Below, one piece after another: positions 1 to 15,228 of a DNA stretch of 64,000 nucleotides (within the stretch, counting starts at the first letter, position 1; each line of letters starts with the position of its first letter). The DNA lies in assembly GCF_003334385.1 (NCBI RefSeq), contig NZ_QOWN01000003.1; one strand, given 5' to 3'. The notes beneath the pieces were generated by a model that had not been told where the DNA came from, did no database searches, and saw nothing but the letters and a program-made list of their open reading frames with translations. A program made the translations under genes and the position numbers. The stretch comes from Escherichia coli (GTDB taxonomy: Bacteria; Pseudomonadota; Gammaproteobacteria; Enterobacterales; Enterobacteriaceae).

Positions 1-883
1 GTACATTCAAAAGATCATAGACAAACGGCGTTGCGCCGAGCATACAGGTGCAACGCTGCTGCTCAAGCAGCGCGAGACACGCATCAGGAGTGAAAATATC
101 TAACAACACGCTGCGAGCGCCAATTAAGAATGGTGCCGTTACGCCATGCAGAAAGCCCGTTGCGTGACCAAGTGGCGCAGGCATCATAAAGACATCCTGC
201 CAGGTCAGATTCAGTCGCGCGCAATAAGCCCGCTCACTGGCGAGAATATTGTTATGCGTTAGCATCACGCCCTTTGGCAGACCCTCGGTTCCGGAGGTAA
301 ACAGCACCGCAGCTAATTCATCGCCGTGGGTCGTTATCGCCGTGGTCAGTGAGGTATTGTCGGCGATAATCTGACTTAATGAGAGGGAAGAGGTGGCGGG
401 AGCCAGTTTGTCCACGCCGACAATTTGTTGTAGTTGTGGAAGCTGATTTTGCAGCGGCAGGATTAAATCTACCGGACGCGTTTGTTTAAACAACGTCGGT
501 GCAAAGAACATTTTTGCCTGACACTTATTGAGCACCCACACCAGTTCTGCTTCCCGCCAGGAAGGCAACAGCGGCACGGAAACTGCACCGATTTTCAGGC
601 AGGCAAGATAGATAACGGTAAATTCACACCAGCCAGGCAGTTGAAATGCGATGCGATCGCCTGATTCAATACCCTTCGCTAACATCCAGTTTGCCAGACA
701 GCTCGCGGCGTGATCGAGCGCGCTATAGGTGTACGATGCACCATGATTATCGACCACGGCAATTTTGTCTGGCATCGCACGAGCGGTCTGCTGCCAGTAA
801 TCGGCCAGCGAAGCATCGCCCCATAACCCTTGCTGACGATACGCCGCACGACGTTGTTCGTTAAACGTTAATGTCACTTTCAT
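1..883 (-). CDS. fadK: acyl-CoA synthetase, N-terminal part only (gene runs off the window start)
   Basis: Reverse-strand ATG at 881-883, N-terminus MKVTLTFNEQRRAAYRQQGLWGDASLADYW..., and position next to ydiT match FadK (YdiD). Absent from the ORF track because it is truncated. Confidence 0.8.
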   Translation of the reverse strand, partial: MKVTLTFNEQRRAAYRQQGLWGDASLADYWQQTARAMPDKIAVVDNHGASYTYSALDHAASCLANWMLAKGIESGDRIAFQLPGWCEFTVIYLACLKIGAVSVPLLPSWREAELVWVLNKCQAKMFFAPTLFKQTRPVDLILPLQNQLPQLQQIVGVDKLAPATSSLSLSQIIADNTSLTTAITTHGDELAAVLFTSGTEGLPKGVMLTHNNILASERAYCARLNLTWQDVFMMPAPLGHATGFLHGVTAPFLIGARSVLLDIFTPDACLALLEQQRCTCMLGATPFVYDLLNV

Positions 884-939
884 GTTGGACTCTCGAAACA
901 GAACATCAGGCCCGAGATGCGGGCCTGTGGGATGCATGA

Positions 940-1233
940 TTAGCCGTAGCGAAAATCAATACCGAAGGTGCCTGCGGGATATTGCCACTGTTCGAGAATA
1001 GTGTTACCGCACAGCACCCGACAGGTGCCGCACTCCAGACAACCGGCGGAATCAAAATGAATGTTTCCTGCGTCATCCTGCTTATAAAGTCCGGCAGGGC
1101 AGGCTTTCATTAATTTATGGAATTCATTGATATCGGGATTTTCCGCCAGAATGATATGCGGGTGGCCCTCATCAACATGGAATTTATTGACGCCTAATTT
1201 GATGTCGACGTTAACCGTAGCGTTCTGGCTCAT
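940..1233 (-). CDS. ydiT: ferredoxin-like protein (FixX-like)
   Basis: 97-aa ORF with a cysteine cluster (CLECGTCRVLC); stop overlaps the ydiS start; gene order ydiQRST. Confidence 0.85.
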   Translation of the reverse strand: MSQNATVNVDIKLGVNKFHVDEGHPHIILAENPDINEFHKLMKACPAGLYKQDDAGNIHFDSAGCLECGTCRVLCGNTILEQWQYPAGTFGIDFRYG

Positions 1234-2519
1234 AGCGCGGTTGCTCCCTTAATGCCATCTTTCAGCAAGTTGATCAGCCCAATTTTCTTCGCATGTCCCA
1301 TGATCATTTTTCGTACCGGCTGGTTTGGTTTGCCGTCGATGGTGAACATCTCGTTCATGATGTCGGCTACCATTCGTGGGTATTGGCTAAACAGGCGCGG
1401 GTTTTCCATCAGCGCCGGGATCTTGCGAAAATGCTGCATATCACGCATGACGCAGCTTTGTTCCAGCTCACGTTTGTATTGCGCCAGACTGCTGGCGGAG
1501 AAATCCGCGCGTTCTTTGGCGGCGATCACCGTTGTGGCGGCAGCCTGAGCCGATGCAATGGCTAAATCCATGCCGCGGACCGTAAAACCCAAATTCAGGC
1601 AGAAGCCTGCGGCGTCACCAACGATCATCACGCCCTCGTTAACCAGTTGCGGCACCATTGCCAGACCGCCTTCCGGCACCATATGCGCGGAATATTCAAG
1701 CAGTTTGCCGCCGCTAATCAGCGGGCGAATGGCGGGGTGTTGTTTAAAATCTTCCAGCATTTGCGGCACGCTTTTTTGCGCATGGGCGATATCACCCAAT
1801 CCACAAACCAGCCCCAAGGATATGGAATCCTTGTTGGTATAGAGAAATCCCCCGCCCATCAGGCCGTCAGAAGGGGAACCGGCAAACAGCCAGGCGGCAC
1901 CTTCCTCGCCCGTAATATTAAAGCGATCGTTGATCTGTTCTGGTGTGAGGCCAATAACCTCTTTAACACCAACAGCGTAATGATGCGGATCGGAAGCGGG
2001 AACCATTCCCAGCGAGCGGCCAAGCATCGAGTTAACGCCATCAGCCAGAATCACCACATTCGCTTCGAGAATATCATCCCCAGCCTGCACGCCAGTGACC
2101 TTGTTTCCTTCACGAACCAGCGCGTCGACGCGAACGCCTGGGATAAACTGCGCGCCCGCCTGCTCGGCTTGTTCCATCAACCACGGGTCCAGACGATTAC
2201 GCAATACGGTATAAGATGCGTGTTGCGGAACATCTGGCTGCTCGCGGTGAAAATCGAGGGTAACGGCGCTTTCTTCGGTTAAGAAGGAGATTTTCTCGCG
2301 TGTGACCTTGCGTTCTACCGGCGCTGATACTGCAAAGCCTGGAATGATTGCTTCAAGTGTGTGGGCATAAAGACGCCCGCCGGTCATGTTTTTACATCCG
2401 GCACTGTCGCCGCGTTCTATCACCAGGACATCCAGCCCGGCTCGTGCCATGACCAGTGCGGCAACGCTACCAGCAACGCCCGCACCGACCACAATGGCAT
2501 CAAATTTGTCATCCGACAT
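1230..2519 (-). CDS. ydiS: FAD-dependent oxidoreductase (FixC / ETF-quinone oxidoreductase-like)
   Basis: 429-aa ORF with an N-terminal dinucleotide-binding motif (VVGAGVAGS). Confidence 0.85.
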   Translation of the reverse strand: MSDDKFDAIVVGAGVAGSVAALVMARAGLDVLVIERGDSAGCKNMTGGRLYAHTLEAIIPGFAVSAPVERKVTREKISFLTEESAVTLDFHREQPDVPQHASYTVLRNRLDPWLMEQAEQAGAQFIPGVRVDALVREGNKVTGVQAGDDILEANVVILADGVNSMLGRSLGMVPASDPHHYAVGVKEVIGLTPEQINDRFNITGEEGAAWLFAGSPSDGLMGGGFLYTNKDSISLGLVCGLGDIAHAQKSVPQMLEDFKQHPAIRPLISGGKLLEYSAHMVPEGGLAMVPQLVNEGVMIVGDAAGFCLNLGFTVRGMDLAIASAQAAATTVIAAKERADFSASSLAQYKRELEQSCVMRDMQHFRKIPALMENPRLFSQYPRMVADIMNEMFTIDGKPNQPVRKMIMGHAKKIGLINLLKDGIKGATAL

Positions 2520-2574
2520 GCGTTATGCTCCCTTCCCGCTGCGTTTACAGCGGGAGATGTGGTTGAAAGGGGAA

Positions 2575-3513
2575 TTAGCGGCTCAACTGGCTAATCAGGG
2601 CAGGGACGACTTTGTAGATATCGCCCACCAGACCGTAGTCGGCATAGTTGAAGATTGGCGCATTTTTATCTTTATTGATGGCGACAATCACTTTTGCGCC
2701 GTTGCCGCCAACCATATGCTGGATCTGCCCGGAGATCCCCAGCGTCAGGTAGAGATCGGATTTCAGCAACACGCCGGAGACACCGATATAACGTTCACGC
2801 TCCATCCAGTTCTCGCCTTCGGCAATTGGACGTGAACAGCCGACTTCAGCATTCAGCACCGCCGCCAGTTCGTGGACCATTTTTAGGTCATCCTGCGCCG
2901 CCAGTCCACGACCGACGCCAACCACACGTTTTGCTTTGCTCAGGTCCACGCTGCTTGCGGCTTTCGCACGGCGTTCGCGACAGAGAATTTCATGACGCGG
3001 AGCAACATAAGGTACCGTTTCTGTCGGGCACTGATGAGAGGTATCACTGGTGCACGGTTCCTGAACACCGGGTGCAAGGGTAATGATCGCCAGCGGGCTG
3101 TTGATCTTTTCCTGAGCGAACGCTAACCCGCCATACATCCGGTGTTCGGCGCAAATGTGACCATCGACAATATCCACCGCCGTGGCATCGTTCACCAGCG
3201 CCGCATTCAGTTGCACACTTAACCGTGCTGCCAGCGCTTTACCACGTTTCGTCGCGGCCAACAGCAACATAGCGGGGTGTTTATCTTTCAGCAGGGCAGC
3301 AATGCTTTCGGCGTAATTTTCAGTGCGTTGCAGCGCGTCGTTTTGCGCAAGAACATAAAGACATTTTGGACCATAAGGCATAACTGCCTGCGCCTGGTCG
3401 GTATTTTGTACAATGGCATACACCTGTTGGCCCCATTGCTGAGCGCCGCCAAACAGTTCAGCATAACGTTCAGGATTATCGCTAAAGACCCAGACGCTGT
3501 TTAATTGACTCAT
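2575..3513 (-). CDS. ydiR: electron transfer flavoprotein, alpha-type subunit (FixB-like)
   Basis: 312-aa ORF between ydiQ and ydiS. Confidence 0.85.
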   Translation of the reverse strand: MSQLNSVWVFSDNPERYAELFGGAQQWGQQVYAIVQNTDQAQAVMPYGPKCLYVLAQNDALQRTENYAESIAALLKDKHPAMLLLAATKRGKALAARLSVQLNAALVNDATAVDIVDGHICAEHRMYGGLAFAQEKINSPLAIITLAPGVQEPCTSDTSHQCPTETVPYVAPRHEILCRERRAKAASSVDLSKAKRVVGVGRGLAAQDDLKMVHELAAVLNAEVGCSRPIAEGENWMERERYIGVSGVLLKSDLYLTLGISGQIQHMVGGNGAKVIVAINKDKNAPIFNYADYGLVGDIYKVVPALISQLSR

Positions 3514-3532
3514 CGTTTCTTCTCCGTAGGCT

Positions 3533-4297
3533 TCAGTTCAGGGCTTTCTTCAGATGTTCCGCCAGCTCGGCAATGGCCTCCGGCGAATCGTTATCGATAA
3601 TGATGTGCTTACGTTCTGTTTGCGGCGGTACGCGAATGCCGACCAGTTCAGCAAGTGGCGCGCTCTGGCTCCAGTCAATATCACTTGCCTGCCACTGATT
3701 TACCGGTTTTTTACCCGCGCCGAGAATGGCTTTCATCGAAGGAATGCGTGGCACGTTAATATCGGAGGTGACGCAGAGCACGGCTGGAACAGAGAGTTCA
3801 ATAACTTCAACATCATCTTCAAGCGTGCGTTCAATCACCAGTGTATTGCCCTGACGCTGAATAGCACTCACTGCATTAATCACCGGAAGTTGCAGAATTT
3901 CTCCGACCAGCAAGCCAACCTGCTGGGCATAAAGGTCGCCGGAACCTTCACCAAAGATCAGTAAATCGAAGCCGATCTTTTCAATTGCTGCCGCCAGCGC
4001 TTTTGCGGTATCGAGAGGCAGTGCATGTTCAAGTTGCGCATCCTGCACCAAATACAGGCTGTGCGGCCCGCGGGATAGCACGTCTTTGCGCACTTTCGAG
4101 TTCTGCAACAATGAGCCGCCAACGGTCAGCGCGGCTATCTCATCGTCATCTGTTGCGAGCTGGCTTGCAGCTTCAATGGCATTGAGATCGAACTGGCTGA
4201 TTTTGGCGTCGGCATTGTCGAAATTCAGGGTGTATTCTGGAGTGACAACAATGTCCTGTTCTTCAGGCACCAGCTTAAAGCAGGTTATTATTTTCAT
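3533..4297 (-). CDS. ydiQ: electron transfer flavoprotein, beta-type subunit (FixA-like)
   Basis: ORF track gives 3533..4396; likely start is the internal ATG at 4295-4297 (MKIITCFKLVPEEQD...), preceded by a Shine-Dalgarno-like AGGAGA, giving about 254 aa. Confidence 0.8.
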   Translation of the reverse strand: MKIITCFKLVPEEQDIVVTPEYTLNFDNADAKISQFDLNAIEAASQLATDDDEIAALTVGGSLLQNSKVRKDVLSRGPHSLYLVQDAQLEHALPLDTAKALAAAIEKIGFDLLIFGEGSGDLYAQQVGLLVGEILQLPVINAVSAIQRQGNTLVIERTLEDDVEVIELSVPAVLCVTSDINVPRIPSMKAILGAGKKPVNQWQASDIDWSQSAPLAELVGIRVPPQTERKHIIIDNDSPEAIAELAEHLKKALN

Positions 4298-4612
4298 GAT
4301 TTCTCCTGTGAGTCGCATACGGAACCATCTCCGATGGAAGGTAAAAATGGCCTGAAAATAGTGTGCGATAGCGGTGCGGGGTTTTCGACGGAGCAAGCTG
4401 TTTTCCTTGCCAACAATCTTGCAAAAAAAATGCGATCGCTAAAACAAAAGTGCAATTTGCGGCAATATAGTTATTCCATGACCGTACAATCTTGCATTCA
4501 GTGTAAATAATCTTGTTTAGCTCTCGCTAAACGCGGTTGTATAACCGCAATACACGCCGTATTTTATCCGGCATATATTGTTTTTGCTTGCTCATGGAAT
4601 AGGGAGGTTGTC

Positions 4613-5524
4613 ATGTATCAACGCTGTTTTGATAACGCCAGTGAAACGCTGTTTGTCGCCGGTAAAACGCCACGGCTTTCACGTTTTGCATTTAGCGATG
4701 ATCCAAAATGGGAGTCCGGACATCACGTTCATGACAATGAAACCGAGTTGATTTACGTCAAGAAAGGGGTTGCAAGGTTTACCATCGATTCTTCGTTATA
4801 TGTCGCACATGCGGATGACATTGTGGTGATAGAACGCGGCAGGCTGCATGCGGTGGCCTCTGACGTTAACGATCCGGCAACGACGTGTACCTGTGCGCTG
4901 TACGGCTTTCAGTTTCAGGGGGCTGAGGAAAATCAGCTACTGCAACCGCATTCTTGTCCGGTAATTGCCGCGGGGCAGGGAAAAGAAGTCATAAAAACCT
5001 TATTTAATGAGCTAAGTGTGATTTTGCCGCAAAGTAAAAATAGCCAAACATCTTCGTTATGGGATGCATTTGCCTATACGTTAGCCATTCTTTACTACGA
5101 AAATTTTAAAAATGCTTATCGTTCGGAGCAGGGGTATATTAAAAAAGATGTTCTGATAAAAGATATTCTTTTCTATCTGAATAATAATTATCGCGAAAAA
5201 ATCACTTTAGAACAGTTATCGAAAAAATTTCGTGCCAGCGTCAGTTATATTTGCCATGAATTTACCAAAGAGTATCGTATTTCCCCTATTAACTATGTTA
5301 TTCAACGGCGTATGACGGAAGCAAAATGGTCACTCACTAATACTGAATTATCACAGGCAGAGATCTCCTGGCGTGTGGGTTATGAAAATGTCGATCACTT
5401 TGCCAAACTGTTTTTGCGCCATGTCGGTTGTTCGCCCAGCGATTACCGTAGACAATTTAAAAACTGTTTTGCGGAACAAGAAATCCTATCTGAATTTCCT
5501 CAACCGGTAAGTCTTGTTGGATAA
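4613..5524 (+). CDS. ydiP: AraC-family transcriptional regulator
   Basis: 303-aa ORF with a C-terminal AraC-type HTH; divergent from ydiQ. Confidence 0.85.
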   Translation: MYQRCFDNASETLFVAGKTPRLSRFAFSDDPKWESGHHVHDNETELIYVKKGVARFTIDSSLYVAHADDIVVIERGRLHAVASDVNDPATTCTCALYGFQFQGAEENQLLQPHSCPVIAAGQGKEVIKTLFNELSVILPQSKNSQTSSLWDAFAYTLAILYYENFKNAYRSEQGYIKKDVLIKDILFYLNNNYREKITLEQLSKKFRASVSYICHEFTKEYRISPINYVIQRRMTEAKWSLTNTELSQAEISWRVGYENVDHFAKLFLRHVGCSPSDYRRQFKNCFAEQEILSEFPQPVSLVG

Positions 5525-5528
5525 ATCT

Positions 5529-5560
5529 GGCGGCGCAGTTTGTTAAGAAGCTGCGCCGCC
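5529..5560. terminator. hairpin between convergent ydiP and ydiO (possible bidirectional terminator)
   Basis: Inverted repeat GGCGGCGCAG ... CTGCGCCGCC with a 12-nt loop in the 42-nt convergent gap. Confidence 0.4.
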
Positions 5561-5566
5561 TGCAGA

Positions 5567-6718
5567 TTATTTGTTCTGATAGTCTTTCAGGATCTGCCGA
5601 CCTGCTACGTAAATCATAATTTCGTCTGTACCGCCGCCGATACGTTCACAACGGACATCACGCCAGAAGCGGGAGACGCGCGCCTCATCGGTATAGCCCA
5701 GACCGCCCATGATTTGAATCGCATCATCAATGACTTCCATTGCGGTACGTGCACAGTACAGTTTTGCCAGCGCCGCGCTGGTGCGCAGTGACTGATGCTG
5801 ATCGGCTTGCCATGCCACTTTCAGCACCATGTTGCGCATGTTGTCGATCTTAATCGCCATCAGCGCCAGTTTTTCCTGGATCATCTGGTTATGACCAATG
5901 GGCTTACCAAAAGCGATACGTTGGTTGGCATAGCGGGCGGCATCTTCAAAGGCGCATTCGGCAAAGCCGGTGCTGCGCGCGGCGTTGATCAGGCGCTCCA
6001 TCTCAAAGTTGTACATCACATTGAGGAAACCCATTCCTTCTTCGCCCACCATGTCGCTCTCTTCAACCTCCACGTTGTCGAGATAGACTTCGCAGGTGCT
6101 GAGCATATGCCAGCCGATTTTATGCAGCGGGTTAATCTTAATGCCGGGCTTACTGGAGTCGACCCACCACAGGGTGAAGGCTTTTTTGGGATCTTTCGGT
6201 TGCGGATCGCGCGCCAGCACCAGCATATACGGGTACTCTTTCGCACCGGTAATAAAGGTTTTTTGTCCGTTGATGTAGACCTTGCCGTTTTTACGCGTGT
6301 AAGTGGTAGTGGCACTGTTGTTATCTGAGCCAGCACCTGGTTCCGTCAACGCCAGGGCATAGGCGGGATCACCCGTTTCCAGGGTGCTCTCTGCCGTTTT
6401 ACGTAGCTGCTCTGCAGAACCGAAACGGCGCATACTGTGAATACATTGACCGTTGGTAATTAAAAATGCCGGAGCACCGCATTTTGACACTTCCATCAGC
6501 GCCAGCATTTGGGTGACGTAATCCGCAGGGATACCACCAAATTCTTCCGGCACGCCAAGCATGGAAATACCGTTATCCGCCAGCGCCCGCATAAACTCAC
6601 GCGGATATGTCCCGTTTTGATCGCAGGTGCGGAAATACTCTTCCGGAAAGTTAGTCGTAATCAGTTCGCGAATACTGGCCAGCAGCAGTTCTTGTTCTTC
6701 AGTTAAAGAAAAATCCAT
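5567..6718 (-). CDS. ydiO: acyl-CoA dehydrogenase family protein
   Basis: ORF track 5567..6772; start taken at ATG 6716-6718 (MDFSLTEEQELLL...), about 383 aa. Confidence 0.85.
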   Translation of the reverse strand: MDFSLTEEQELLLASIRELITTNFPEEYFRTCDQNGTYPREFMRALADNGISMLGVPEEFGGIPADYVTQMLALMEVSKCGAPAFLITNGQCIHSMRRFGSAEQLRKTAESTLETGDPAYALALTEPGAGSDNNSATTTYTRKNGKVYINGQKTFITGAKEYPYMLVLARDPQPKDPKKAFTLWWVDSSKPGIKINPLHKIGWHMLSTCEVYLDNVEVEESDMVGEEGMGFLNVMYNFEMERLINAARSTGFAECAFEDAARYANQRIAFGKPIGHNQMIQEKLALMAIKIDNMRNMVLKVAWQADQHQSLRTSAALAKLYCARTAMEVIDDAIQIMGGLGYTDEARVSRFWRDVRCERIGGGTDEIMIYVAGRQILKDYQNK

Positions 6719-6731
6719 CATTATACTCCTG

Positions 6732-8327
6732 TTAATGAGCCGCTTCAGGCAGGACAAAACCCATCGCCGCATCGATAAATAATCTTTCGTCCATCAGTTT
6801 GAGTTCTGGCGAAATCACTGGGGTGAAATCCATTTTGTCGAGAATATCTTTTTGTAAATCGACGCCAGGGGCGATTTCGATTAAATGCAGGCCGTCTTCT
6901 TTCAGCGTGAATACTGCGCGCTCAGTGATATAACGAACATCCAGCCCTCGCTCGAGAGCGATTTTTCCGCTGAAAGTAATTTCCGGTAGTTCCCGAATAA
7001 ATTTCTTCACCCGTCCTTCCTGGACGATATTTAATTTGCCGTCGGTAATTTCTGTTTTTAAACTGCCCGCAGTTAATGTGCCGCAGAAAATGATTTTCTT
7101 CGAAGTGGCACTGATATCAATAAATCCACCGGTGCCCATGATTTTACCATTGAATTTATGCACGCCGACGTTACCGTGCTGGTCGACTTCAGCAAAACTC
7201 AAATAACAAACATCCAGACCGCCACCGTGATAAAAATCAAACTGGGACGTCATATCCAGAATGGCACGGGTATTCACGTTCGCGCCAAAGGCGATCCCCT
7301 GTGAAGTAATTCCGCCAATCGGACCTGTTTCTACCGTCAGAATAAAGTCATCAGCACAACCTTCTTCTCGGGCGACCAGGCCAATGCCGTCAGCAATACC
7401 GACGCCGACATTCCCCACCGCGCCTTTACGCATTTCGAATAATGCGCGCCGCGCAACTAATTTACGTTGGTTTAGGGGCAGGCTAAGTTTGGTACTGTCA
7501 TCAAGGGTGAAGTCACCAGAAATAAAGCGGTTAACCGGTGCACCGCCATACAGTTGGGTTTGATCCGGATCGACCACCACAATATCCACCAGATAACCCG
7601 GAATACGGACAGATTTAGGATGCAGCGTGGCTTTCTTAACCATTTTCTGCACCTGCATCATCACAATACCGCCGTTATTGTGCACCGCCTGGGCAATAAC
7701 CAATGCGTCGAGATACATCACCTCATCTTCAAAAGTGGCGTAGCCTTCACTGTCGCAGGTGGTAGCGCGAATGAAGGCAATATCTGGCGCAATCGCTTTG
7801 TAATAGAGATATTCTTTGTTATCAAACTCGACCAGTTTAATCAGGTCTTCTTTAGTGACTTCATTCAGTTTGCCGCCTTGCTGGCGTGGATCGACAAATG
7901 TCCCGATGCCAATATCACTAATAATACCAGGCTGGTGGGCTGCGGCGGCGCGTAAGGTTTGTGTAAGTACACCTTGTGGGTAGTTATAAGCAATAATTTT
8001 ATTTTGTTCTGCGAGTTCAGAAATACGCGGCGATTGTCCCCAGTGACCACATAATGCCCATTTCACCAGACCTTCTTGCGCCAGAGGACTAATACCACGG
8101 TCGGCGCGATCGCCAAGCCCTGTTGGACTAATAATCGATAAATTACGTGGTGTTTGAGTCTGTTTATATTTATCAGCAAGAGCAGTAATTAACGTGGTGG
8201 CTTCCAGAATACCGCCGCCAGCGCCTAACACACAAAGTGTTGCTTCGTCGGGAATATAATTCACCGCTTCCTGTGCCGACAGGACCGGCACTCGTCCATT
8301 AATACGAGGTGGTTTTACAGGTTTCAT
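6732..8327 (-). CDS. ydiF: acyl-CoA:acetate CoA-transferase (fused alpha/beta subunits)
   Basis: 531-aa ORF; gene order aroD-ydiF-ydiO. Confidence 0.85.
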   Translation of the reverse strand: MKPVKPPRINGRVPVLSAQEAVNYIPDEATLCVLGAGGGILEATTLITALADKYKQTQTPRNLSIISPTGLGDRADRGISPLAQEGLVKWALCGHWGQSPRISELAEQNKIIAYNYPQGVLTQTLRAAAAHQPGIISDIGIGTFVDPRQQGGKLNEVTKEDLIKLVEFDNKEYLYYKAIAPDIAFIRATTCDSEGYATFEDEVMYLDALVIAQAVHNNGGIVMMQVQKMVKKATLHPKSVRIPGYLVDIVVVDPDQTQLYGGAPVNRFISGDFTLDDSTKLSLPLNQRKLVARRALFEMRKGAVGNVGVGIADGIGLVAREEGCADDFILTVETGPIGGITSQGIAFGANVNTRAILDMTSQFDFYHGGGLDVCYLSFAEVDQHGNVGVHKFNGKIMGTGGFIDISATSKKIIFCGTLTAGSLKTEITDGKLNIVQEGRVKKFIRELPEITFSGKIALERGLDVRYITERAVFTLKEDGLHLIEIAPGVDLQKDILDKMDFTPVISPELKLMDERLFIDAAMGFVLPEAAH

Positions 8328-8469
8328 TGTTAATTCCTGATTCAGATGTGATTTTCCCTACGCCAAATGGAGAATTAGCGCACAGAGACTCACGAAATAT
8401 TTTTATTAAATACGATTGAATATATTTTTTAGTTCGGCGGGGAGGGTGTTCCCGCCGAAATATTATTGC

Positions 8470-9228
8470 TTATGCCTGGTGTAAAATAGTTAATACCGTG
8501 CGCAAATCATTTACCGAGATTTGCCCTGGCGCAGACGCTTTTTTTACCGCACCAAAAGTTGCCGCCGAGCCAAATACTTCACCAGCCAGACGAGAAATTA
8601 CGCCAGTTTTTGCCATCGACATCGTGATAATTGGACGATCGGCATACTGCTCCTGCATCTCCAGGGTCGCGGCAAGCAACGTCAGCACATCGCTGGTACT
8701 TTGCGGCATCAGCGCAATCTTAGGAATATCGGCGTCGAAGGATTGCATTTTGCGCAGACGGGCAATGATTTCTTCGGCTTCCGGCGTTTTATGGAAGTCA
8801 TGGTTGGACATGACTACTTTCACATCATGCGCGTGGGCGTAGGCGACGGTTTCTTTAACCTGATCATCACCGGTAAATAACTCCAGATCGATCATATCAA
8901 CCAGGCCGCTGTCGATGGCTGCACGATTGAGTGCAATATAAGCCTCGGTGGAAATCGCCTGCTCGCCGCCTTCTTTGGCACTGCGGAAGGTAAACAGCAG
9001 CGGTTTTTCTGGCATGGTCTCACGGAGAATTTTTGCTGCCGCCATGACAGACTCCACATTGGAGAGGTCGGCATAGTGGTCCACACGCCATTCCAGAATA
9101 TCAAAGTCCGCTTCACGATAGGCGAGAGCTTCGGATTTCACGCTGGCGATATCTTTCGCCATCAGCGAGACGATGATTTTAGGTGCGCCCGTACCAATGA
9201 CGAGATCTTTTACAGTTACGGTTTTCAT
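8470..9228 (-). CDS. aroD: 3-dehydroquinate dehydratase, type I
   Basis: 252-aa ORF starting [26 protein letters not shown], recognised as AroD. Confidence 0.92.
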
Positions 9229-9258
9229 TTTTTACCCTTTCTGCACGCGGTCAGCCTG

Positions 9259-10125
9259 TCAGGCACCGAACCCCATGACCTGTTTAACATATTCCAGAGG
9301 GAAATCTTTGCCAGTCCATAATGTGAACTGTTCAGCCCCTTGCCACAACAACATGCCGTATCCATCAATCGTTTTGCAACCAGCTTGTTGCGCCTGCTGC
9401 AATAACTTCGTCATATGCGGGTTATACACGCATTCAGTGACCAGAAGTCCCGGATGTAACAGACTGATATCATTAACCAATGATTCATTCTCAAGGGGTT
9501 TCATACCCACTTTTGTGCCATTGGTTAAAATGTCGGCGGAAGCCAGGGCTTCAGCAAAGGCTTGCTGATCGGCGAGATCGGTGACCGTGACGACACAATC
9601 GGTGTTTTCATTAACCCGCTGCGCGAAGGCGAGGGCTTTATCGAAGAACTCATCCCGACGGTTAAAGAGTTTAATTTCTTTTAAACCTTCAATTGCCCCC
9701 TGCGCGCCAATTGCCGTTGAGGCACCACCAGCCCCTAACAGCACCATCGTTTTGCCTTTGATATCAAAACCGCTCTCTTTAATGGCGCGAATATGGCCCG
9801 TGCCGTCGGTGTTATAGCCACGCAGATAGCCATCATCATTAACGATGGTGTTGATGGCCCCCACCAGTTTGGCAGCTGGTGTTAATTCATCAACATATTC
9901 ACACGCCAGTTGTTTGTTCGGCATCGATACACCAGTTCCGCGCATTTTGAGGGCTTTTAATCCTTCAATTGCTCCAGGAAAGCTATCGTTATCCACTTCG
10001 AAGGCCATATAGGTAAATGGCAATCCCGCTTTTTCTAAGGCTTTATTCTGCATTTCGGGCGATAAACTGTGGCGGATAGGATAGGCCATCAACCCAATCA
10101 ATTCGTATTTTGCGGTAACATCCAT
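9259..10125 (-). CDS. ydiB: quinate/shikimate 5-dehydrogenase (NAD-dependent)
   Basis: 288-aa ORF; AroE paralogue directly upstream of aroD. Confidence 0.88.
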
Positions 10126-10136
10126 AATTAACTCCT

Positions 10137-11402
10137 TTAACCTCTATGCTTAATTGTGTTTAACCGGGTGCAAAATTTACGCTCGCCAAACCGCACATCA
10201 TTTTCAGGAATAATGAAAACGCGGTAATAGCGGATAAAAACAATAATTGCGGTAATCAGGGCCAGCAGCGCGAAAGTAAAATCGAGAACAATGATATATT
10301 GCAGGCCGATGTTCGACAGATAACCGGTAATCAGTGGAATAACAAAGTTAGCCAGTCCACCCATCATCATATAAATACTGGTGACTTTGGCTTTGCTTTT
10401 GGGAAAAAACTCTGACATGACCGAAACGCCGAGCTGTAAAATGCCGCCAGCTGCTGAGAAACCGATAACAAAGGCTCCGGCATTGCACACCAGTGGAGAA
10501 GGGTACAGGTAGATAATGGCTGCTGTTATTGTTGCCAGTGCAGAGTTAAATACATTAGCCCAGATGGGCCGGACCATTTTTTTCAGTAGTGCGGCAAAAA
10601 TAAAGACACAGACCAACGAGCCCATACTGTAATAAGAGATGGTTTTTAATGCCTCAGCTTCTGACATACCAGCAAAAGCCATCGCATATTTGGGCATCCA
10701 CACCACAATCACATAAAAGGTCGAGAATGCGGCTACACCGAACAGTACCGATGAAACACCTTCCAGCCAGACTAACGGTTTGCTGTTCATTTGCGGTAAT
10801 TCATTAGTTACGCTGGCGTCCACCAACTGGCTGGGGAATTTGCTTTTCAACAGCATCAGCGTGATCAGTACAAATAGAATACCCGGAATAATCAGCCCAT
10901 AGCCGTACCAGATATTATTGAGCAACATATAGCTCACCAGCATTGGGTAGAACATTTGCCCAAATGACACCATCGCTTTAACCAGTATGACCGCCGAACC
11001 AGAGGCTTTCGGAAAGCATTCCATGAGCGCGGGGTAGCCACCCGTATCCAGCGCTGAGTTAGCGATACCTACGCACACTGCCAGACCGTAGGCGAGAGTT
11101 AAATTCGGGCAAGCGGGAATACCAAAGAAGAATAGCAGATACATTATTACTGCCATTAATATCACCGCCCGACGACCAAACTTATCGGAGATCACACCGA
11201 AGAATAAAATACTGATCAATCGCCCCAAACCGATACCGGAAATTAAGTAGGCAATGCCCGCGTTGTCAGTGGAAAACTTTTCCGCCAGAGATGACATATT
11301 TTGGGCAAGCGTAATAACACTAATGCCGTGCAGGAAGTAGCTGAAGTAAATACAAAGAACAGCCAGGATAAATGGCGTGCTGAAAGCCTTATTTTGAGAC
11401 AT
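10137..11402 (-). CDS. ydiN: MFS transporter
   Basis: Polytopic hydrophobic ORF; likely ATG start at 11400-11402 (MSQNKAF...), about 421 aa. Confidence 0.82.
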
Positions 11403-11628
11403 TTTCACAGCTCCTTGCTGAAAGATAATTTCGTTACCGTACGTATTGTTCTCCGACGGTTTACATAATTACTATACTGAAGATGATTTTCCCTGGGTAC
11501 ATGGCATAAAGTTTATGTTTCCAGGAATATTGCATGTCATAGTTTGTTTTTGATCGCGATTTTCCTTAGTTAGCGCAGAAAGAGTTATTTATCCGTAAGA
11601 TCTTGCATGACCTGAAAAGAATATTGCA

Positions 11629-12843
11629 TTACCCACCCGGAGCGACATTTTCCTTTAGCGAGTGATGCCGCGTTTTTTTGCGGCTGCGTAAGCCGATAAA
11701 CAGTGCCAGTAAAAAACCGATGGCAGCGATGGCGGTATCGAACCACATAATATCGGCAATACTTCTTTGGGACAGATGAGCCGTAATCAACGGAATAGTA
11801 AAGGTCGCAATACTGCCCGCACTGTAATAGATCCCTGTAGCTTTACCTTTAGCGTAAGGGAAACGTTCAGCCATTAACGTCAGGCCAATTTGCACAACAC
11901 CTCCAGCAGAGGTAAAACCAATGACAAAAGCAAATATTATCACCACATAAAATGTGGGATGCAGGCAGACGGTAAACAGAGCAATAAATGAGATAAAGGT
12001 GTACAGCATCAGTAATGTTGTTGGGCGAACGGTATTACGAATGAGTGGAGCGGTAATAAATACACAAAGCAGCGAACCCACGGTGTAGATACTGAGTAGT
12101 TTGATCGACATAGTGTATGACATGCCTGCAACAAATTGTCCGTACTGTGCCAGCCACTGGCTAACCAGATAAAACGTTGCCATTGAGATATAGCCATATA
12201 AGGTATAACTGGCTAAATCGATAATTGAACAGCGATGTTCCGTAGAGCTGGTGGTTTTCTTTATGACAGGTAAGCGACGACCCGGATGGGGTGGGAACGT
12301 ACAACGGTATAAAAACAGAGCGTTAATAAACATAATGCCTGCAGCAATCATAAAGGACCAACCGAACCACAGTTCAGCCCACACTAACAGGCTAATGATT
12401 AGCGGTAATAAAAATTGTCCGCTGGAAACAAATGCTTTAATTAAAATATTGGCTGTCCCAGGTGAGCGTGGAAAAGCTTCCATCAAACTGGGATAAGTGC
12501 CTGCATCGAGAAAACTGTTTGCCATTCCCGCCAGAAAGCCAAAAACATAAGCGATAATGATGTTATTGGTCTGCAGGATGCCAAAAAAGAAGGCCATATA
12601 GCAGCACATCCCGAGCATGATAAAAGGGCGGCGACCAAAGCGATCGGATAATAATCCTGCAAAAAGCAAGACACTTAATCGACCAATGCCCAGCGATGAG
12701 ATAACTATCGAGACACCCGCGGCATTAGTCTGCCAAAGTGTCTCCAGCGAGGCCATATTCAGGCTCATCAAAAGGACGCCCATACCATGCACCAGGTAAT
12801 TAAAATACAACCCAAGTGCGGTAGGGAAATAGGGATTTTTCAT
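11629..12843 (-). CDS. ydiM: MFS transporter
   Basis: 404-aa polytopic hydrophobic ORF, paralogous in character to ydiN. Confidence 0.82.
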   Translation of the reverse strand: MKNPYFPTALGLYFNYLVHGMGVLLMSLNMASLETLWQTNAAGVSIVISSLGIGRLSVLLFAGLLSDRFGRRPFIMLGMCCYMAFFFGILQTNNIIIAYVFGFLAGMANSFLDAGTYPSLMEAFPRSPGTANILIKAFVSSGQFLLPLIISLLVWAELWFGWSFMIAAGIMFINALFLYRCTFPPHPGRRLPVIKKTTSSTEHRCSIIDLASYTLYGYISMATFYLVSQWLAQYGQFVAGMSYTMSIKLLSIYTVGSLLCVFITAPLIRNTVRPTTLLMLYTFISFIALFTVCLHPTFYVVIIFAFVIGFTSAGGVVQIGLTLMAERFPYAKGKATGIYYSAGSIATFTIPLITAHLSQRSIADIMWFDTAIAAIGFLLALFIGLRSRKKTRHHSLKENVAPGG

Positions 12844-12942
12844 AGGTTCTACTTAGCAAAGGTGCTTTAAAAAGTGAAGCGATGTTGTGTCAGCATCCGT
12901 TCATTATTGTTGTAACAACGACAATTCCTTTCTGTGGAAAAA

Positions 12943-13299
12943 TTAACAAAGCCGCTCCAGATCGTGTGCATATAATTCAGCAGCTACCGATTGATAGATC
13001 TTCCAGTCAATAAAATTGCCATCAGGGTAGACTCGTTGAAATGCGGTTAAGTCGGGGAAAAAACGCATGGTGTTGTTGCCGATGCGGTTATTTATTTTCT
13101 CTATGATGGCATGAAGATGTTTTTTTCTTTGCTGACGCATAGCCAACAGTTGCTCGACTACACGATCAGGAATGGCACACTTGCCATTTTCCCACTGACG
13201 CCAGCTTTCACTGTCACCGGTCTGGGCAATCCAGGTCGCGCATTCATCAATAGTCATGGCAAAAATATGGCGGAGTGCCTGGAGTTCATAAGCGTTCAT
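12943..13299 (-). CDS. ydiL: small conserved protein of unknown function
   Basis: ORF track 12943..13326; start taken at ATG 13297-13299 (MNAYELQALRH...), about 118 aa. Confidence 0.7.
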   Translation of the reverse strand: MNAYELQALRHIFAMTIDECATWIAQTGDSESWRQWENGKCAIPDRVVEQLLAMRQQRKKHLHAIIEKINNRIGNNTMRFFPDLTAFQRVYPDGNFIDWKIYQSVAAELYAHDLERLC

Positions 13300-13436
13300 C
13301 GTGTAATGGCTGCATGAAATAAACAATAAAATATAAATAACATTATCAGCCTGCTGACGGCTTGAAGAGAGTCACAGTATCTTGTGCAACATTATTGGAA
13401 AGAGTGAGGGGCGAGGTAGCGAAGCGGAAAAATGTT

Positions 13437-13542
13437 AAAAAAAAGCCCATCGTGGGAGATGGGCAAAGACTACACACAGCAATTCGTTGTTTCACTCAGG
13501 GGATTTCCATGCTTATAAATCAATATGTTGATTTATAACCGT
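13437..13542 (-). ncRNA. rprA: RprA small regulatory RNA (RpoS translational activator)
   Basis: Reverse complement reads ACGGTTATAAATCAACATATTGATTTATAAGCATGGAAATCCCC...CCCATCTCCCACGATGGGC followed by a T-run (terminator hairpin); matches RprA as recalled, between ydiL and ydiK. Confidence 0.85.
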
Positions 13543-14840: not shown

Positions 14841-15228
14841 AACTACTTTTCACCTTTTTTGTGCGTCAAATCGTCGACGCGACGTGAACACGCGAAACTC
14901 ACCTGCATAATGATGAGCAATTTCAGCGGTTTTTAACAGGCCGATTCTGCCCTTAATTCTGATGGGCGTGTTAGAAAAAAATGTGGTACAACAACTCAGG
15001 CAACACGCAAACGATTTACTCGTCGTATTTCAAGTTGCATGTGCTGCGGCTACGTTCGTTCACCCCAGTCACTTACTATTGTAAGCTCCTGGAGTTCACT
15101 CGCTTGCCGCCTTCCTGCAACACGAAATCCATAGAGTAAACAAACATCACCTTTCAGTGCGCTATTGCAGCAGCCTGAAAGAATAGTGTATCGACCTACA
15201 TCACAGACCGCAGGAAAGGGTCAATATA

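Follow-up and report, generated by a model that had tools for sequence, protein, structure and literature searches.

What does the ETF-linked acyl-CoA cluster at the start of this stretch of E. coli DNA act on, and in which direction do its electrons flow? Genes in the window (the whole stretch of 64,000 nucleotides that was analysed) were called from the RefSeq annotation and open reading frames (ORFs), and families were checked against NCBIfam. Positions 1-12000 are 100% identical to E. coli K-12 MG1655, and 5356 of the 5426 complete E. coli genomes contain at least 80% of this sequence. The locus is the annotated K-12 cluster ydiF-ydiO / ydiP / ydiQRST-fadK, in which ydiP alone lies on the plus strand. 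The initial annotation had described an ETF-acyl-CoA cluster in 1-8327, and RefSeq, ORFs and NCBIfam agree that it is real. All the genes it named are present, but only the 5' 883 nt of fadK fall within the window, the rest lying beyond its edge. A unit ending at 8327 could not be upheld: this cut severs aroD-ydiB-ydiN-ydiM-ydiL (8470-13299), which comparative data place with the cluster, and by setting the boundary at ydiF the annotation missed the quinate/shikimate neighbours. The features are listed below.

1-883, minus strand: fadK, 5' part (codons 1-294 of 548), AMP-forming acyl-CoA ligase (NCBIfam PRK06087)
940-1233, minus strand: ydiT, FixX-like ferredoxin-like protein
1230-2519, minus strand: ydiS, FixC-like / ETF-quinone-oxidoreductase-like flavoprotein
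2575-3513, minus strand: ydiR, ETF large (alpha, FixB-like) subunit (NCBIfam PRK11916)
3533-4297, minus strand: ydiQ, ETF small (beta, FixA-like) subunit (NCBIfam PRK12342)
4298-4612, no strand: ydiQ/ydiP divergent control region with three CAAGAT[ATC][GA]T boxes
4613-5524, plus strand: ydiP, AraC-family transcription regulator
5567-6718, minus strand: ydiO, CaiA-type acyl-CoA dehydrogenase / enoyl-CoA reductase (NCBIfam PRK12341)
6732-8327, minus strand: ydiF, single-chain family I (Pct-like) CoA-transferase
8470-9228, minus strand: aroD, type I 3-dehydroquinate dehydratase
9259-10125, minus strand: ydiB, NAD-linked quinate/shikimate dehydrogenase
10137-11402, minus strand: ydiN, MFS transporter, candidate substrate importer
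11629-12843, minus strand: ydiM, MFS transporter
12943-13299, minus strand: ydiL, small DUF1870 protein

NCBIfam confirmed every family assignment for the cluster proteins, with YdiQ, YdiR, YdiS, YdiO and FadK each above their own curated equivalog or subfamily cut-off. YdiQRST was found to mirror FixABCX, as had been proposed, forming a paralogue set at 46-61% identity to the E. coli proteins (YdiQ/FixA 57%, YdiR/FixB 46%, YdiS/FixC 61%, YdiT/FixX 61%). YdiQ matched PRK12342 with 500 bits and also passed the FixA subfamily cut-off (326 vs 219); among solved structures it is closest to CarD from the caffeyl-CoA reductase complex (84 bits). YdiR matched PRK11916 with 689 bits, and its PDB matches are ETF alpha subunits. 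The ETF-QO-like character claimed for YdiS is borne out by a quinone-binding domain in residues 181-280 (Pfam ETFQO_UQ-bd, E 6.5e-9). YdiS passed the FixC cut-off (639 vs 610), and its structural relatives are Thermotoga FixC, the best (7koe_C, E 5.6e-70), and pig ETF-QO (2gmh, E 2e-24). YdiT gave 144 bits with the FixX model, under the cut-off of 166, and Thermotoga FixX (7koe_D, E 3e-14) is its closest relative of solved structure; its five cysteines (45, 65, 68, 71, 75) are enough for one [4Fe-4S] cluster. It is secure that YdiO is linked to the quinone pool by a FixABCX-type chain of YdiQR, ETF-QO-like YdiS and one-cluster YdiT, and equally that YdiF (Pct-type CoA-transferase), FadK (acyl-CoA ligase) and YdiP (AraC regulator) complete the cluster.

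YdiO is the substrate-defining enzyme. Its assignment as an acyl-CoA dehydrogenase held, since it passed the PRK12341 cut-off (787 bits); the nearest named family is CaiA, whose model gave 452 bits, under its cut-off of 540, and YdiO is 48% identical to CaiA. The catalytic glutamate is of IVD type (FEMERL, E241), with glycine at the position of MCAD Glu376, as in CaiA. This closeness to CaiA and the FixABCX paralogy support the earlier reading of an ETF-coupled enoyl-CoA reductase or dehydrogenase. YdiO is conserved at 91-97% in Enterobacterales outside Escherichia and at 80-84% in Sutterella. For YdiF, the top PDB match was 2AHU/2AHV/2AHW, 'putative enzyme ydiF' (1188 bits, residues 1-531 on 1-531), with Glu333 within VETG, and the best NCBIfam match was the staphylococcal fatty-acid-degradation FadX (389 bits, under its cut-off). 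FadK gave 1087 bits with PRK06087 (cut-off 736), the runner-up being cyclohexanecarboxylate-CoA ligase (417 bits); NC_000913.3 annotates a longer fadK, starting at window position 937. Activities of YdiB, AroD, YdiF and FadK have been shown in published work. The y-ome paper credits ydiO with 'limited functional information' and a 2022 review describes experimental evidence on YdiQR as lacking, in agreement with the annotators' view that the substrate is not firmly established. Both the cluster and its ETF/acyl-CoA interpretation have been published before, in work on anaerobic beta-oxidation and on engineered beta-oxidation reversal. What is new is that ydiN-ydiB-aroD, just past 8327, is kept with the cluster and is the best clue to its substrate.

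We found ydiF-ydiO-ydiQRST accompanied by ydiN-ydiB-aroD in five gene orders (Enterobacterales, Sutterella and three low-GC metagenomic ones), with a type I dehydroquinase gene alongside the ydiF/ydiO/ETF genes in all five. Among loci with ydiF/ydiO and the upstream flank intact, aroD is directly upstream of ydiF-ydiO and ydiN further upstream in 37 of 37; ydiB lies between them in all but L013. Sutterella (Betaproteobacteria, 57-60% GC) has ydiTSRQ and ydiN-ydiB-aroD-ydiF-ydiO, with a ligase gene beyond ydiT. On the low-GC contigs (42-44% GC) the order is reshuffled: in L058/59 the gene for ETF-alpha is separated from that for FixC by a YdiB-type dehydrogenase and a type I dehydroquinase, in L056/57 by a dehydroquinase, and in L061 both follow ETF-alpha. 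Two of these arrangements place both shikimate genes after ETF-alpha in one tightly packed run. The L058 YdiB homologue, inside the operon, is 77% identical to YdiB and passed the YdiB-specific NF009390 (545 bits vs 349), and homologues of ydiN (46-69% identity) stand first in the clusters of Sutterella and the low-GC contigs. All YdiO homologues of at least 77% identity whose context was read have these shikimate-type partners. Within the block, conservation is highest for YdiO, YdiB and YdiF (70-83% in the low-GC contigs, vs 45-56% for the ETF/Fix parts), which would fit a shared substrate. More distant YdiO/CaiA-family members (62-68%) occur with a CoA-transferase, MFS transporter, ETF, ligase and sometimes FixCX, without shikimate genes; it therefore seems to be the accessory genes that determine the substrate.

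The transporters YdiM and YdiN have been linked to shikimate-pathway genes (PMC10588857). Both ydiM and ydiL co-occur with the block in most Enterobacterales loci; no ydiM match was found in the Sutterella loci or in the Enterobacterales-like L033 and L037, and ydiL is missing from Sutterella and L033 and lies elsewhere in L037.

The ydiP gene is convergent with ydiO (42 bp) and divergent from ydiQ across a 315-bp spacer. All three CAAGAT boxes in the 13.5 kb examined fall in this spacer (4413-4421, 4486-4494 and 4507-4515), all in ydiQ orientation and with the two distal boxes 21 bp apart. Three or more boxes were obtained in 0 of 5000 shuffles, and the positions are kept from Escherichia to Yersinia, Dickeya and Serratia. 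The earlier call of YdiP as an AraC regulator agrees with its C-terminal HTH, which matches AraC/RhaS/HpaA models; NCBIfam holds no curated equivalog for it. An AraC gene 45% identical to YdiP heads the low-GC cluster L058. We infer that the boxes are candidate YdiP sites. No box was found upstream of ydiN or ydiF in E. coli, which leaves co-regulation of the two halves unsupported.

Shikimate is cyclohex-1-ene-1-carboxylate, an alpha,beta-unsaturated acid, so its CoA ester is an enoyl-CoA. Judging from gene content and conservation, we see about an even chance that the ydi cluster and ydiN-ydiB-aroD form a carnitine-like, CoA-dependent pathway for quinate/shikimate reduction. The neighbourhood suggests that quinate and shikimate, both plant acids, may be the natural substrate rather than fatty acids; we infer both substrate and direction of electron flow, the former through guilt by association. 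YdiN (the CaiT counterpart) would import the substrate, and YdiB with AroD would take quinate to shikimate through 3-dehydroquinate and 3-dehydroshikimate, a net dehydration creating the C1=C2 enoate (the CaiD step). FadK, like CaiC, would form the first shikimoyl-CoA and so prime the cycle. YdiO (CaiA) would then produce dihydroshikimoyl-CoA by reducing the alpha,beta double bond, with electrons passing from (mena)quinol through YdiS, YdiT and YdiQR (FixABCX), and YdiF (CaiB) would move CoA to the next shikimate, freeing dihydroshikimate. YdiP would turn on ydiQRST-fadK via the CAAGAT boxes. Quinate or shikimate would then act as a sink for electrons in the absence of oxygen.

Sutterella wadsworthensis is reported to grow by reducing the shikimate enoate to hydroshikimate; that study assigned no enzyme in this species, its RNA-seq covering E. 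lenta and H. filiformis only, and one of the many flavin reductases encoded by S. wadsworthensis could reduce shikimate instead. Shikimoyl-CoA is a known Streptomyces metabolite (Skyrud et al. 2020, as cited in PMC13304725). The reported C6-C8 optimum of FadK matches a C7 ring acid, and its runner-up family was also counted for shikimate. Against this pathway, the roles of YdiF, YdiO and FadK on shikimate are putative, and in published genetic work ydiO and ydiQRST are placed in the anaerobic oxidation of fatty acids. Since aroD encodes the biosynthetic dehydroquinase of E. coli, biosynthesis could account for where it lies. The two halves may also be separable, Klebsiella reportedly having retained aroD-ydiM-ydiB but not ydiN. 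Transcriptomes of shikimate producers give weak hints, ydiQRST appearing in growth-phase comparisons only and ydiN/ydiB/aroD in another study.

A possible, though rather unlikely, alternative is anaerobic beta-oxidation, in which YdiO would be the anaerobic FadE counterpart, oxidising short- and medium-chain acyl-CoAs made by FadK. YdiQR and YdiST would carry the electrons into the quinone pool, from which nitrate or some other acceptor would take them up; FadIJ, encoded elsewhere in the genome, would complete the cycle, and the shikimate neighbours would be unrelated. The literature counts ydiFO, ydiQRST and fadHIJK as such a pathway (PMC3967523); Gulevich 2016 is reported to make the assignment by genetics, and ydiO genetics in a fadE mutant have been published for fatty-acid oxidation. 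FadK activity on C6-C8 acids, the failure of a fadD fadK double mutant on fatty acids and the sub-threshold FadX match of YdiF count in the same direction. However, besides the gap it reports for YdiQR, the 2022 review notes that transcriptomes did not show induction of fadK under anaerobic conditions and that neither FadR nor CRP controls it, and straight-chain activity could be a side activity. Beta-oxidation also leaves unexplained a YdiB-type dehydrogenase and dehydroquinase beside or inside the ETF/ACAD operon in five gene orders, and the fact that CaiA, the closest characterised relative of YdiO, is a reductase. Fatty-acid and quinate/shikimate roles are not mutually exclusive.

It is improbable that the same parts run the opposite way, with YdiO dehydrogenating CoA esters of dihydroshikimate or related cyclohexanecarboxylates from other gut microbes, electrons leaving via ETF and YdiS to quinone, and shikimate or dehydroshikimate being salvaged into aromatic biosynthesis. 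ACAD/ETF/ETF-QO chains do run oxidatively in their canonical direction, and YdiS carries a quinone-binding domain. With the enoyl-CoA/acyl-CoA couple lying between menaquinone and ubiquinone, the quinone pool could determine the direction, and synteny with ydiB and aroD suits either direction. CaiA with FixABCX, the nearest characterised system, nevertheless runs reductively (fixA and fixB being reported as needed for carnitine reduction), S. wadsworthensis uses up shikimate and accumulates hydroshikimate, and dietary quinate and shikimate are abundant whereas dihydroshikimate has no such known source.

Least of all do we credit YdiO and YdiQR as a clostridial Bcd-EtfAB-like bifurcating short-chain enoyl-CoA reductase, coupling NADH oxidation to reduction of crotonyl-CoA and of ferredoxin or flavodoxin; the 'possibly electron-bifurcating' of the initial annotation found no support. 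YdiQ and YdiR do score higher with solved bifurcating ETFs (CarD/E, C. difficile EtfAB, LctBC) than with human/Paracoccus ETF. YdiQ, however, has GDLYAQQVGL in place of the DGDTAQVG of bifurcating CarD and C. difficile EtfB, a segment that reportedly contacts the second FAD. The YdiT cysteines suffice for one cluster only, against about nine in the aligned stretch of Thermotoga EtfX, and Bcd-type systems need no FixC/FixX, whereas the quinone-linked FixC-like protein is kept here, in Sutterella and in most relatives. Designs for beta-oxidation reversal use ydiO and ydiQRST as the 'enoyl-CoA reductase' step, but a 2023 review finds it unclear whether YdiQRST matters in them.

Several known systems resemble parts of the proposed quinate/shikimate pathway. 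In Streptomyces, shikimate is reportedly activated to shikimoyl-CoA, but the route is biosynthetic, with dehydrations on to the fully deoxygenated ring of cyclohexanecarboxyl-CoA. The shikimate-induced flavin reductase of Eggerthella lenta turns the same enoate into hydroshikimate as a respiratory acceptor, but is fumarate-reductase-like and acts on the free acid without CoA chemistry. The E. coli FadI/FadJ/FadK set shares fadK by genetics, with ydiO/ydiQRST proposed as its dehydrogenase step; the ydi cluster, in contrast, has no hydratase, dehydrogenase or thiolase, its fadK is outside FadR or CRP control, and the genes conserved beside the cluster are of shikimate-pathway type rather than fad genes. 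The bifurcating Thermotoga maritima EtfABCX (7KOE) and Azotobacter FixABCX have the same four-subunit architecture but take in NADH, reduce menaquinone and ferredoxin and serve no ACAD; YdiT lacks the extra N-terminal EtfX cysteines and YdiQ diverges in the flavin/AMP-site segment. Propionate CoA-transferase and AcrABC of Clostridium propionicum combine, as here, a single-chain family I transferase with an ACAD and ETF enoyl-CoA reducer, all matches to the Acr models being far under their cut-offs (YdiO/AcrC 234 bits, YdiR/AcrA 141, YdiQ/AcrB 76). That system is not known to have FixC/FixX partners. CarABCDE of Acetobacterium woodii, acting on the plant-derived alpha,beta-unsaturated acid caffeate, shares the CoA-transferase loop with a priming-only ligase, the ACAD-type enoyl-CoA reductase and the ETF, and CarC and CarE were matched as well as CarD. 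The CarCDE complex is nevertheless soluble and bifurcating, with CarE carrying a ferredoxin domain and with no FixC/FixX, whereas YdiQ lacks DGDTAQVG and the quinone-linked YdiS is kept. The likeness to the cai/fix modules that had been pointed out rests on the paralogy of YdiQRST and YdiO and extends to FadK/CaiC (31% identity). Compared with caiTABCDE/fixABCX, YdiF is of family I (Pct-like) and unrelated in sequence to the family III CaiB, YdiB and AroD are proposed to carry out the dehydration on the free acid in place of a CaiD-type enoyl-CoA hydratase, an AraC-type regulator takes the place of CaiF, and the putative substrate differs. The cast is the same, comprising a transporter, a dehydration step, a ligase, a CoA-transferase, an ACAD-type reductase and an ETF/FixCX chain, and YdiO and CaiA share their active-site layout with the IVD-type glutamate.

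The gene content that the initial annotation had given for the start of the window (an ETF-linked acyl-CoA cluster at 1-8327) was recovered in full, and every one of its family assignments agreed with NCBIfam. According to the RefSeq annotation and the ORF list, the genes are:

fadK, <1-883, minus strand, acyl-CoA synthetase (first 294 of 548 codons inside the window)
ydiT, 940-1233, minus strand, ferredoxin-like protein
ydiS, 1230-2519, minus strand, ETF-quinone-oxidoreductase-like flavoprotein
ydiR, 2575-3513, minus strand, ETF alpha
ydiQ, 3533-4297, minus strand, ETF beta
ydiP, 4613-5524, plus strand, AraC regulator
ydiO, 5567-6718, minus strand, acyl-CoA dehydrogenase
ydiF, 6732-8327, minus strand, CoA-transferase

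The genes ydiQ-ydiR-ydiS-ydiT are adjacent in this order (gaps of 19, 55 and -4 bp in the ORF list), while ydiP is divergent from ydiQ over a 315-bp spacer and convergent with ydiO. The genes just past 8327 are aroD (type I dehydroquinase), ydiB (NAD-linked quinate/shikimate dehydrogenase), the MFS transporter genes ydiN and ydiM, and ydiL. The first 12 kb show 100% identity to E. coli K-12 MG1655, reversed relative to the usual map orientation, and 5356 of 5426 complete E. coli genomes contain at least 80% of them by megablast; the 1-12000 query matched a median of two places per genome. The cluster as described is named, annotated and repeatedly discussed in E. coli K-12, and is already known. 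Some starts differ between records or could be extended. The fadK start is ATG 883 in RefSeq PGAP (548 aa) and ATG 937 in NC_000913.3 (566 aa), the latter 2 bp past the ydiT stop; a GC-rich hairpin (CAGGCCCGCATCTCGGGCCTG, 907-927) within the 18-codon extension may speak for the shorter form. The ydiQ frame is open upstream to TTG 4396 (287 aa against 254 aa annotated) and that of ydiO to ATG 6772 (401 aa against 383 aa), in which case ydiO and the end of ydiF would overlap. For ydiQ and ydiO the starts given in the annotation are consistent with homologues (MKII... and MDFSL...).

We compared the proteins pairwise with those of the E. coli cai/fix and ygc loci.

Identity of ydi proteins to cai/fix proteins of E. 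coli
YdiQ and FixA, 57%
YdiR and FixB, 46%
YdiS and FixC, 61%
YdiT and FixX, 61%
YdiO and CaiA, 48%
FadK and CaiC, 31%
YdiF and CaiB, unrelated (family I against family III)

With four adjacent genes in the same order and 46-61% identity to FixA/B/C/X, ydiQRST mirrors FixABCX as had been proposed, and the third E. coli set, YgcRQNO, is more distant (27-43% identity). Against curated NCBIfam models, YdiS (639, cut-off 610) and YdiQ (326, FixA subfamily cut-off 219) scored above threshold; YdiR (321, FixB cut-off 549) and YdiT (144, FixX cut-off 166) fell below it. YdiO reached 452 bits against the CaiA model (cut-off 540), and with 48% identity its assignment as a CaiA equivalog was rejected. 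YdiQ, YdiR and YdiS each passed a separate ydi-specific model of their own. Both the missed FixB, FixX and CaiA cut-offs and the ydi-specific matches therefore mark these proteins as paralogues, not equivalogs. Residues 181-280 of YdiS matched the ETF-QO quinone-binding domain (Pfam ETFQO_UQ-bd, E 6.5e-9), and its best solved relatives were Thermotoga FixC (7koe_C, E 5.6e-70) and mammalian ETF-QO (2gmh, E 2e-24); for YdiT the best was Thermotoga EtfX.

YdiO matched 55 solved ACADs at E below 1e-30, and the Pfam domains Acyl-CoA_dh_N/M/1 were recorded for P0003, its 99% identical cluster representative, and for other homologues. The catalytic Glu241 of YdiO lies in FEMERL (FDHERF in CaiA), at the IVD/LCAD-type position, and both proteins have Gly at the position of MCAD Glu376; these positions are assigned by reference to the layouts of IVD and MCAD. 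YdiO and CaiA have a common predicted active-site layout, and YdiO is presumably a CaiA paralogue with another substrate. YdiF is the protein of PDB entries 2AHU/2AHV/2AHW, whose chains were its top match over the full length, with a fused alpha/beta chain as in family I CoA-transferases (Pct/YdiF type). Its Glu333 sits in VETG, and a glutamyl-CoA thioester has reportedly been trapped at this residue. The second-best NCBIfam family of FadK was cyclohexanecarboxylate-CoA ligase.

A scan with YdiO, taking one genome per species, gave 45 loci, whose genes were assigned by BLAST against E. coli proteins. The block ydiL-ydiM-ydiN-ydiB-aroD-ydiF-ydiO-ydiP-ydiQRST-fadK was kept together in most Enterobacterales loci long enough to judge, among them those of Escherichia, Citrobacter, Kosakonia, Intestinirhabdus, Yersinia, Brenneria, Dickeya, Serratia, Prodigiosinella and Symbiopectobacterium, and it was retained even where the outer flanks (ydiK, ppsA) differed. 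In the betaproteobacteria Sutterella seckii and S. wadsworthensis (57-60% GC), ydiTSRQ and ydiN-ydiB-aroD-ydiF-ydiO lie on opposite strands, with YdiO 80-84% identical to that of E. coli. In S. wadsworthensis (L040) the cluster covers 183-11149 from ydiT to ydiO; a metagenome contig related to these loci carries a ligase gene beyond ydiT. Database searches and contig look-ups revealed three further arrangements on contigs of 42-44% GC:

L058/L059: AraC / MFS - CoA-transferase - ACAD (83%) - ETF-beta - ETF-alpha - shikimate dehydrogenase - dehydroquinase I - FixC - FixX, cluster gaps 12-141 bp
L056/L057: MFS - CoA-transferase - ACAD (77%) - ETF-beta - ETF-alpha - dehydroquinase I - FixC - FixX - ligase
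L061: AraC - MFS - MFS - CoA-transferase - ACAD (83%) - ETF-beta - ETF-alpha - shikimate dehydrogenase - dehydroquinase I

Linkage of a transporter with dehydration enzymes, a CoA-transferase, a reductase, the ETF chain and a ligase is conserved in unrelated lineages, with five different arrangements: those of Enterobacterales, Sutterella, L058/L059, L056/L057 and L061. The operon-embedded dehydrogenase exceeded the YdiB-specific NCBIfam cut-off (545 bits against 349) and the embedded dehydratase passed the type I dehydroquinase model. The YdiO, YdiB, YdiF and AroD homologues on the low-GC contigs were 65-83% identical to those of E. coli and the ETF/Fix parts 45-56%, which suggests tighter constraint on the catalytic core than on the ETF/Fix components. 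Among the contexts read, YdiO homologues at or above 77% identity all had shikimate-gene partners beside them. No ETF, CoA-transferase or shikimate genes were found near P0027 (74% identity to YdiO), so the association is limited to homologues of at least 77%. More distant relatives of YdiO (62-68%) in Desulfovibrio and Escherichia albertii lie with a family III CoA-transferase, an MFS transporter, an ACAD and ETF, in Desulfovibrio additionally with FixCX and a ligase, and no shikimate genes were present in these modules. Such a design therefore looks like a general cai-like module whose substrate is set by accessory genes. In E. coli, AroD doubles as the dehydroquinase of biosynthesis, a weakness of the substrate assignment.

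Several loci showed features of their own. YdiO is unusually conserved between E. coli and Yersinia, Dickeya and Serratia (L024-L032), at 92-93% identity, with YdiF at 88-90%, YdiB at 84-88% and YdiP, YdiQ, YdiR, YdiS, FadK and AroD at 65-80%. The Desulfovibrio desulfuricans (L053) and E. albertii (L055) loci carry paralogous cai-like modules with one or two ACADs (YdiO-like ACAD 63-68%), and the former also encodes a metallo-beta-lactamase-fold protein. An Enterobacterales MAG has a gene for a PcaK-like aromatic-acid/H+ symporter between ydiT and fadK (L037:16533-17918; 424 bits, below cut-off). After the dehydroquinase gene, L061 encodes ApbA/ketopantoate-reductase-like, MaoC-type dehydratase and glyoxalase-like proteins (15197-17125), which may serve further ring processing in that organism; it has no FixC/FixX gene. 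The region downstream of the S. seckii cluster (L036:14370-18974) encodes a histidine kinase and a response regulator, together with a flavocytochrome c-type flavin reductase; this last, one of many respiratory-like Sutterella reductases, is a possible alternative shikimate reductase. In E. coli E69 (L049) the first ~71 codons of ydiO are followed by ppsA, and no ydiP-fadK genes were detected; the locus of Enterobacter sp. EA-1 (L048) looks decayed, with fragment matches only. These losses indicate that the module is dispensable in some strains, consistent with its pseudogenisation in extraintestinal Salmonella (PMC3967523). Klebsiella is reported to have aroD-ydiM-ydiB without ydiN (PMC10588857), a further weakness of the substrate assignment.

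The ydiQ-ydiP spacer contains three boxes of the form CAAGAT[ATC][GA]T, the distal two 21 bp apart:

4413-4421, ydiQ orientation, CAAGAT box
4486-4494, ydiQ orientation, CAAGAT box
4507-4515, ydiQ orientation, CAAGAT box

The 13.5 kb examined contain no other such box, and three were never reached in 5000 shuffles of the spacer. Their positions are kept from Escherichia to Yersinia, Dickeya and Serratia, similar boxes occur in the divergent spacer of Sutterella, and we regard them as candidate YdiP sites. A near-match to the motif (TGCAAGATTAT) lies at 41836-41846. As a sign of a common regulon we looked for boxes upstream of ydiN, ydiF and ydiM and found none in E. coli; boxes upstream of ydiM occurred only in Yersinia, Dickeya and Prodigiosinella. 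With E. coli ydiN and ydiF lacking an upstream box, the boxes give no sign of joint control of the ydiN-ydiB-aroD and ydiQRST-fadK halves. Yersinia, Dickeya and Serratia have an extra LysR-family regulator gene in the ydiM-ydiN interval, divergent from ydiN (L024:3763-4665, L026:3281-4282, L032:3706-4605) and absent from E. coli, which hints at separate control of the transporter/dehydrogenase half. The 142-bp aroD-ydiF spacer holds a palindromic hairpin with an 11-bp stem (TTCGGCGGG...CCCGCCGAA, 8433-8459); read in the transcriptional direction, an A-rich rather than T-rich run comes after it, so it is no typical terminator. Consensus promoter and terminator scans of 1-13500 did not define operon ends: the 12 and 20 hits were equal or close to what shuffled sequence predicts (18.9 and 14.8, respectively).

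The best explanation of the cluster, to which we give an even chance of being correct, is a cai/fix-like, quinone-linked and CoA-dependent reduction of quinate and shikimate, the substrate being taken from linkage, chemistry and organism phenotype. Shikimate is a cyclohex-1-ene-1-carboxylate, and its CoA thioester is therefore an enoyl-CoA, the substrate type of CaiA-like reductases. YdiB and AroD can turn quinate, by way of 3-dehydroquinate and 3-dehydroshikimate, into shikimate, a redox-neutral dehydration. Shikimoyl-CoA would then be the intermediate that YdiO, as a CaiA-like reductase fed from the quinone pool, reduces towards dihydroshikimate. YdiN would take the role of CaiT, YdiB and AroD the place of the CaiD step, FadK the role of CaiC, YdiO that of CaiA, YdiF that of CaiB and YdiQRST that of FixABCX. 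It is as likely as not that ydiN-ydiB-aroD-ydiF-ydiO-ydiP-ydiQRST-fadK as a whole forms one pathway through which quinate and shikimate from the diet serve as anaerobic electron acceptor in Enterobacterales, Sutterella and other gut bacteria.

Independent support for this reading comes from a published phenotype, a known intermediate and the ligase family of FadK. With formate present, both S. wadsworthensis and E. lenta grew in the work of Little et al. by reduction of the shikimate enoate to hydroshikimate. A flavin reductase was tied to this reduction in E. lenta only; their RNA-seq did not include Sutterella, and CoA or ETF genes went unmentioned. Shikimoyl-CoA is an established Streptomyces intermediate, according to the citation of Skyrud et al. 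2020 in PMC13304725. The C6-C8 optimum reported for FadK in a 2022 review fits a C7 ring acid. A 2023 paper ties YdiM and YdiN to shikimate-pathway genes and not to ydiF/O/QRST (PMC10588857), and our literature search found no paper joining the ydiF/ydiO/ydiQRST/fadK genes with shikimate. Transcriptomes of shikimate-overproducing strains are weak as support: the ydiQRST values are 'average expression' across growth phases with no shikimate-free control, and the induction of ydiN/ydiB/aroD comes from another strain and condition than those data. The '3-hydroshikimate' reported from the supernatant of E. coli Nissle was set aside because this metabolomics label is ambiguous.

Anaerobic fatty-acid oxidation has published genetics behind it, and we nevertheless think it unlikely, if a serious contender, as the role of the cluster. 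ydiFO, ydiQRST and fadHIJK have been described as an anaerobic beta-oxidation pathway (PMC3967523), and, as cited in PMC10318755, Gulevich et al. 2016 assigned ydiO and ydiQRST to its acyl-CoA dehydrogenase complex and claimed that they are needed for anaerobic growth on fatty acids; the genes also feature in models and designs of beta-oxidation reversal. Against this, the 2022 review places fadK outside FadR or CRP control, with no anaerobic induction seen in transcriptomes. According to the same review, growth on fatty acids has not been shown to require any ETF, and evidence on YdiQR is lacking; ydiO is credited elsewhere with 'limited functional information'. The native substrate is accordingly unsettled, as the initial annotation had held, and its interpretation, bifurcation aside, matches the state of the literature. 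With a promiscuous YdiO, the fatty-acid and shikimate roles could exist side by side.

The direction of electron flow toward shikimate reduction is itself inferred, and with a ubiquinone partner the chain could run oxidatively; that the cluster serves the oxidative salvage of reduced ring acids strikes us as improbable. A bifurcating short-chain enoyl-CoA reductase made of YdiO with YdiQR is the least credible alternative and very improbable. In HMMER alignments GEGSGDLYAQQVGL of YdiQ pairs with GRQAIDGDTAQVG of the bifurcating CarD (ETF subunit of the Acetobacterium caffeyl-CoA reductase complex) and C. difficile EtfB. The DGDTAQVGP-type small-subunit segment, which reportedly marks the second FAD site of bifurcating ETFs, is not conserved in YdiQ, and E. 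coli FixA (GDGSSDLYAQQVGL) is equally divergent. YdiT has five Cys (45, 65, 68, 71, 75), enough for one [4Fe-4S] cluster, whereas Thermotoga EtfX, for which two [4Fe-4S] clusters are reported, has about nine in the aligned stretch; the N-terminal Cys-rich part of EtfX (7koe_D, ICAEKCSDRPCVSCC) aligned to PDINE---FHKLMKAC of YdiT. E. coli FixX has four Cys only. The idea of a bifurcating FixABCX module was rejected on the curated cut-offs and these motif tests, and the earlier suggestion of possible bifurcation found no support. Since the second-FAD role of the segment is taken from reported work on other ETFs, bifurcation by YdiQR is, on sequence, graded unsupported rather than excluded.

If quinate and shikimate reduction is the true role, YdiB, YdiF, YdiO, YdiQRST, YdiN and YdiP would all gain functions at once, among roughly ten E. 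coli genes that include about eight y-genes and YdiB, a puzzling AroE paralogue. The missing shikimate reductase of S. wadsworthensis would be named, and the classical observation that microbes reduce quinate and shikimate to cyclohexane acids would gain a genetic basis. It would show how common gut Proteobacteria dump electrons on abundant plant acids from coffee, fruit and release from chlorogenate, and explain why engineered beta-oxidation reversal has drawn uncertain benefit from YdiO/YdiQRST when these serve as its generic enoyl-CoA reductase. E. coli would then have a second, CoA-dependent case of carnitine-type respiratory logic, with quinate to shikimate analogous to carnitine to crotonobetaine in the cai system. 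In caffeate respiration of Acetobacterium a ligase primes and a CoA-transferase recycles; the ydi genes would have the same split of priming ligase and recycling CoA-transferase, and among solved proteins YdiQ is closest to CarD from the Acetobacterium system.
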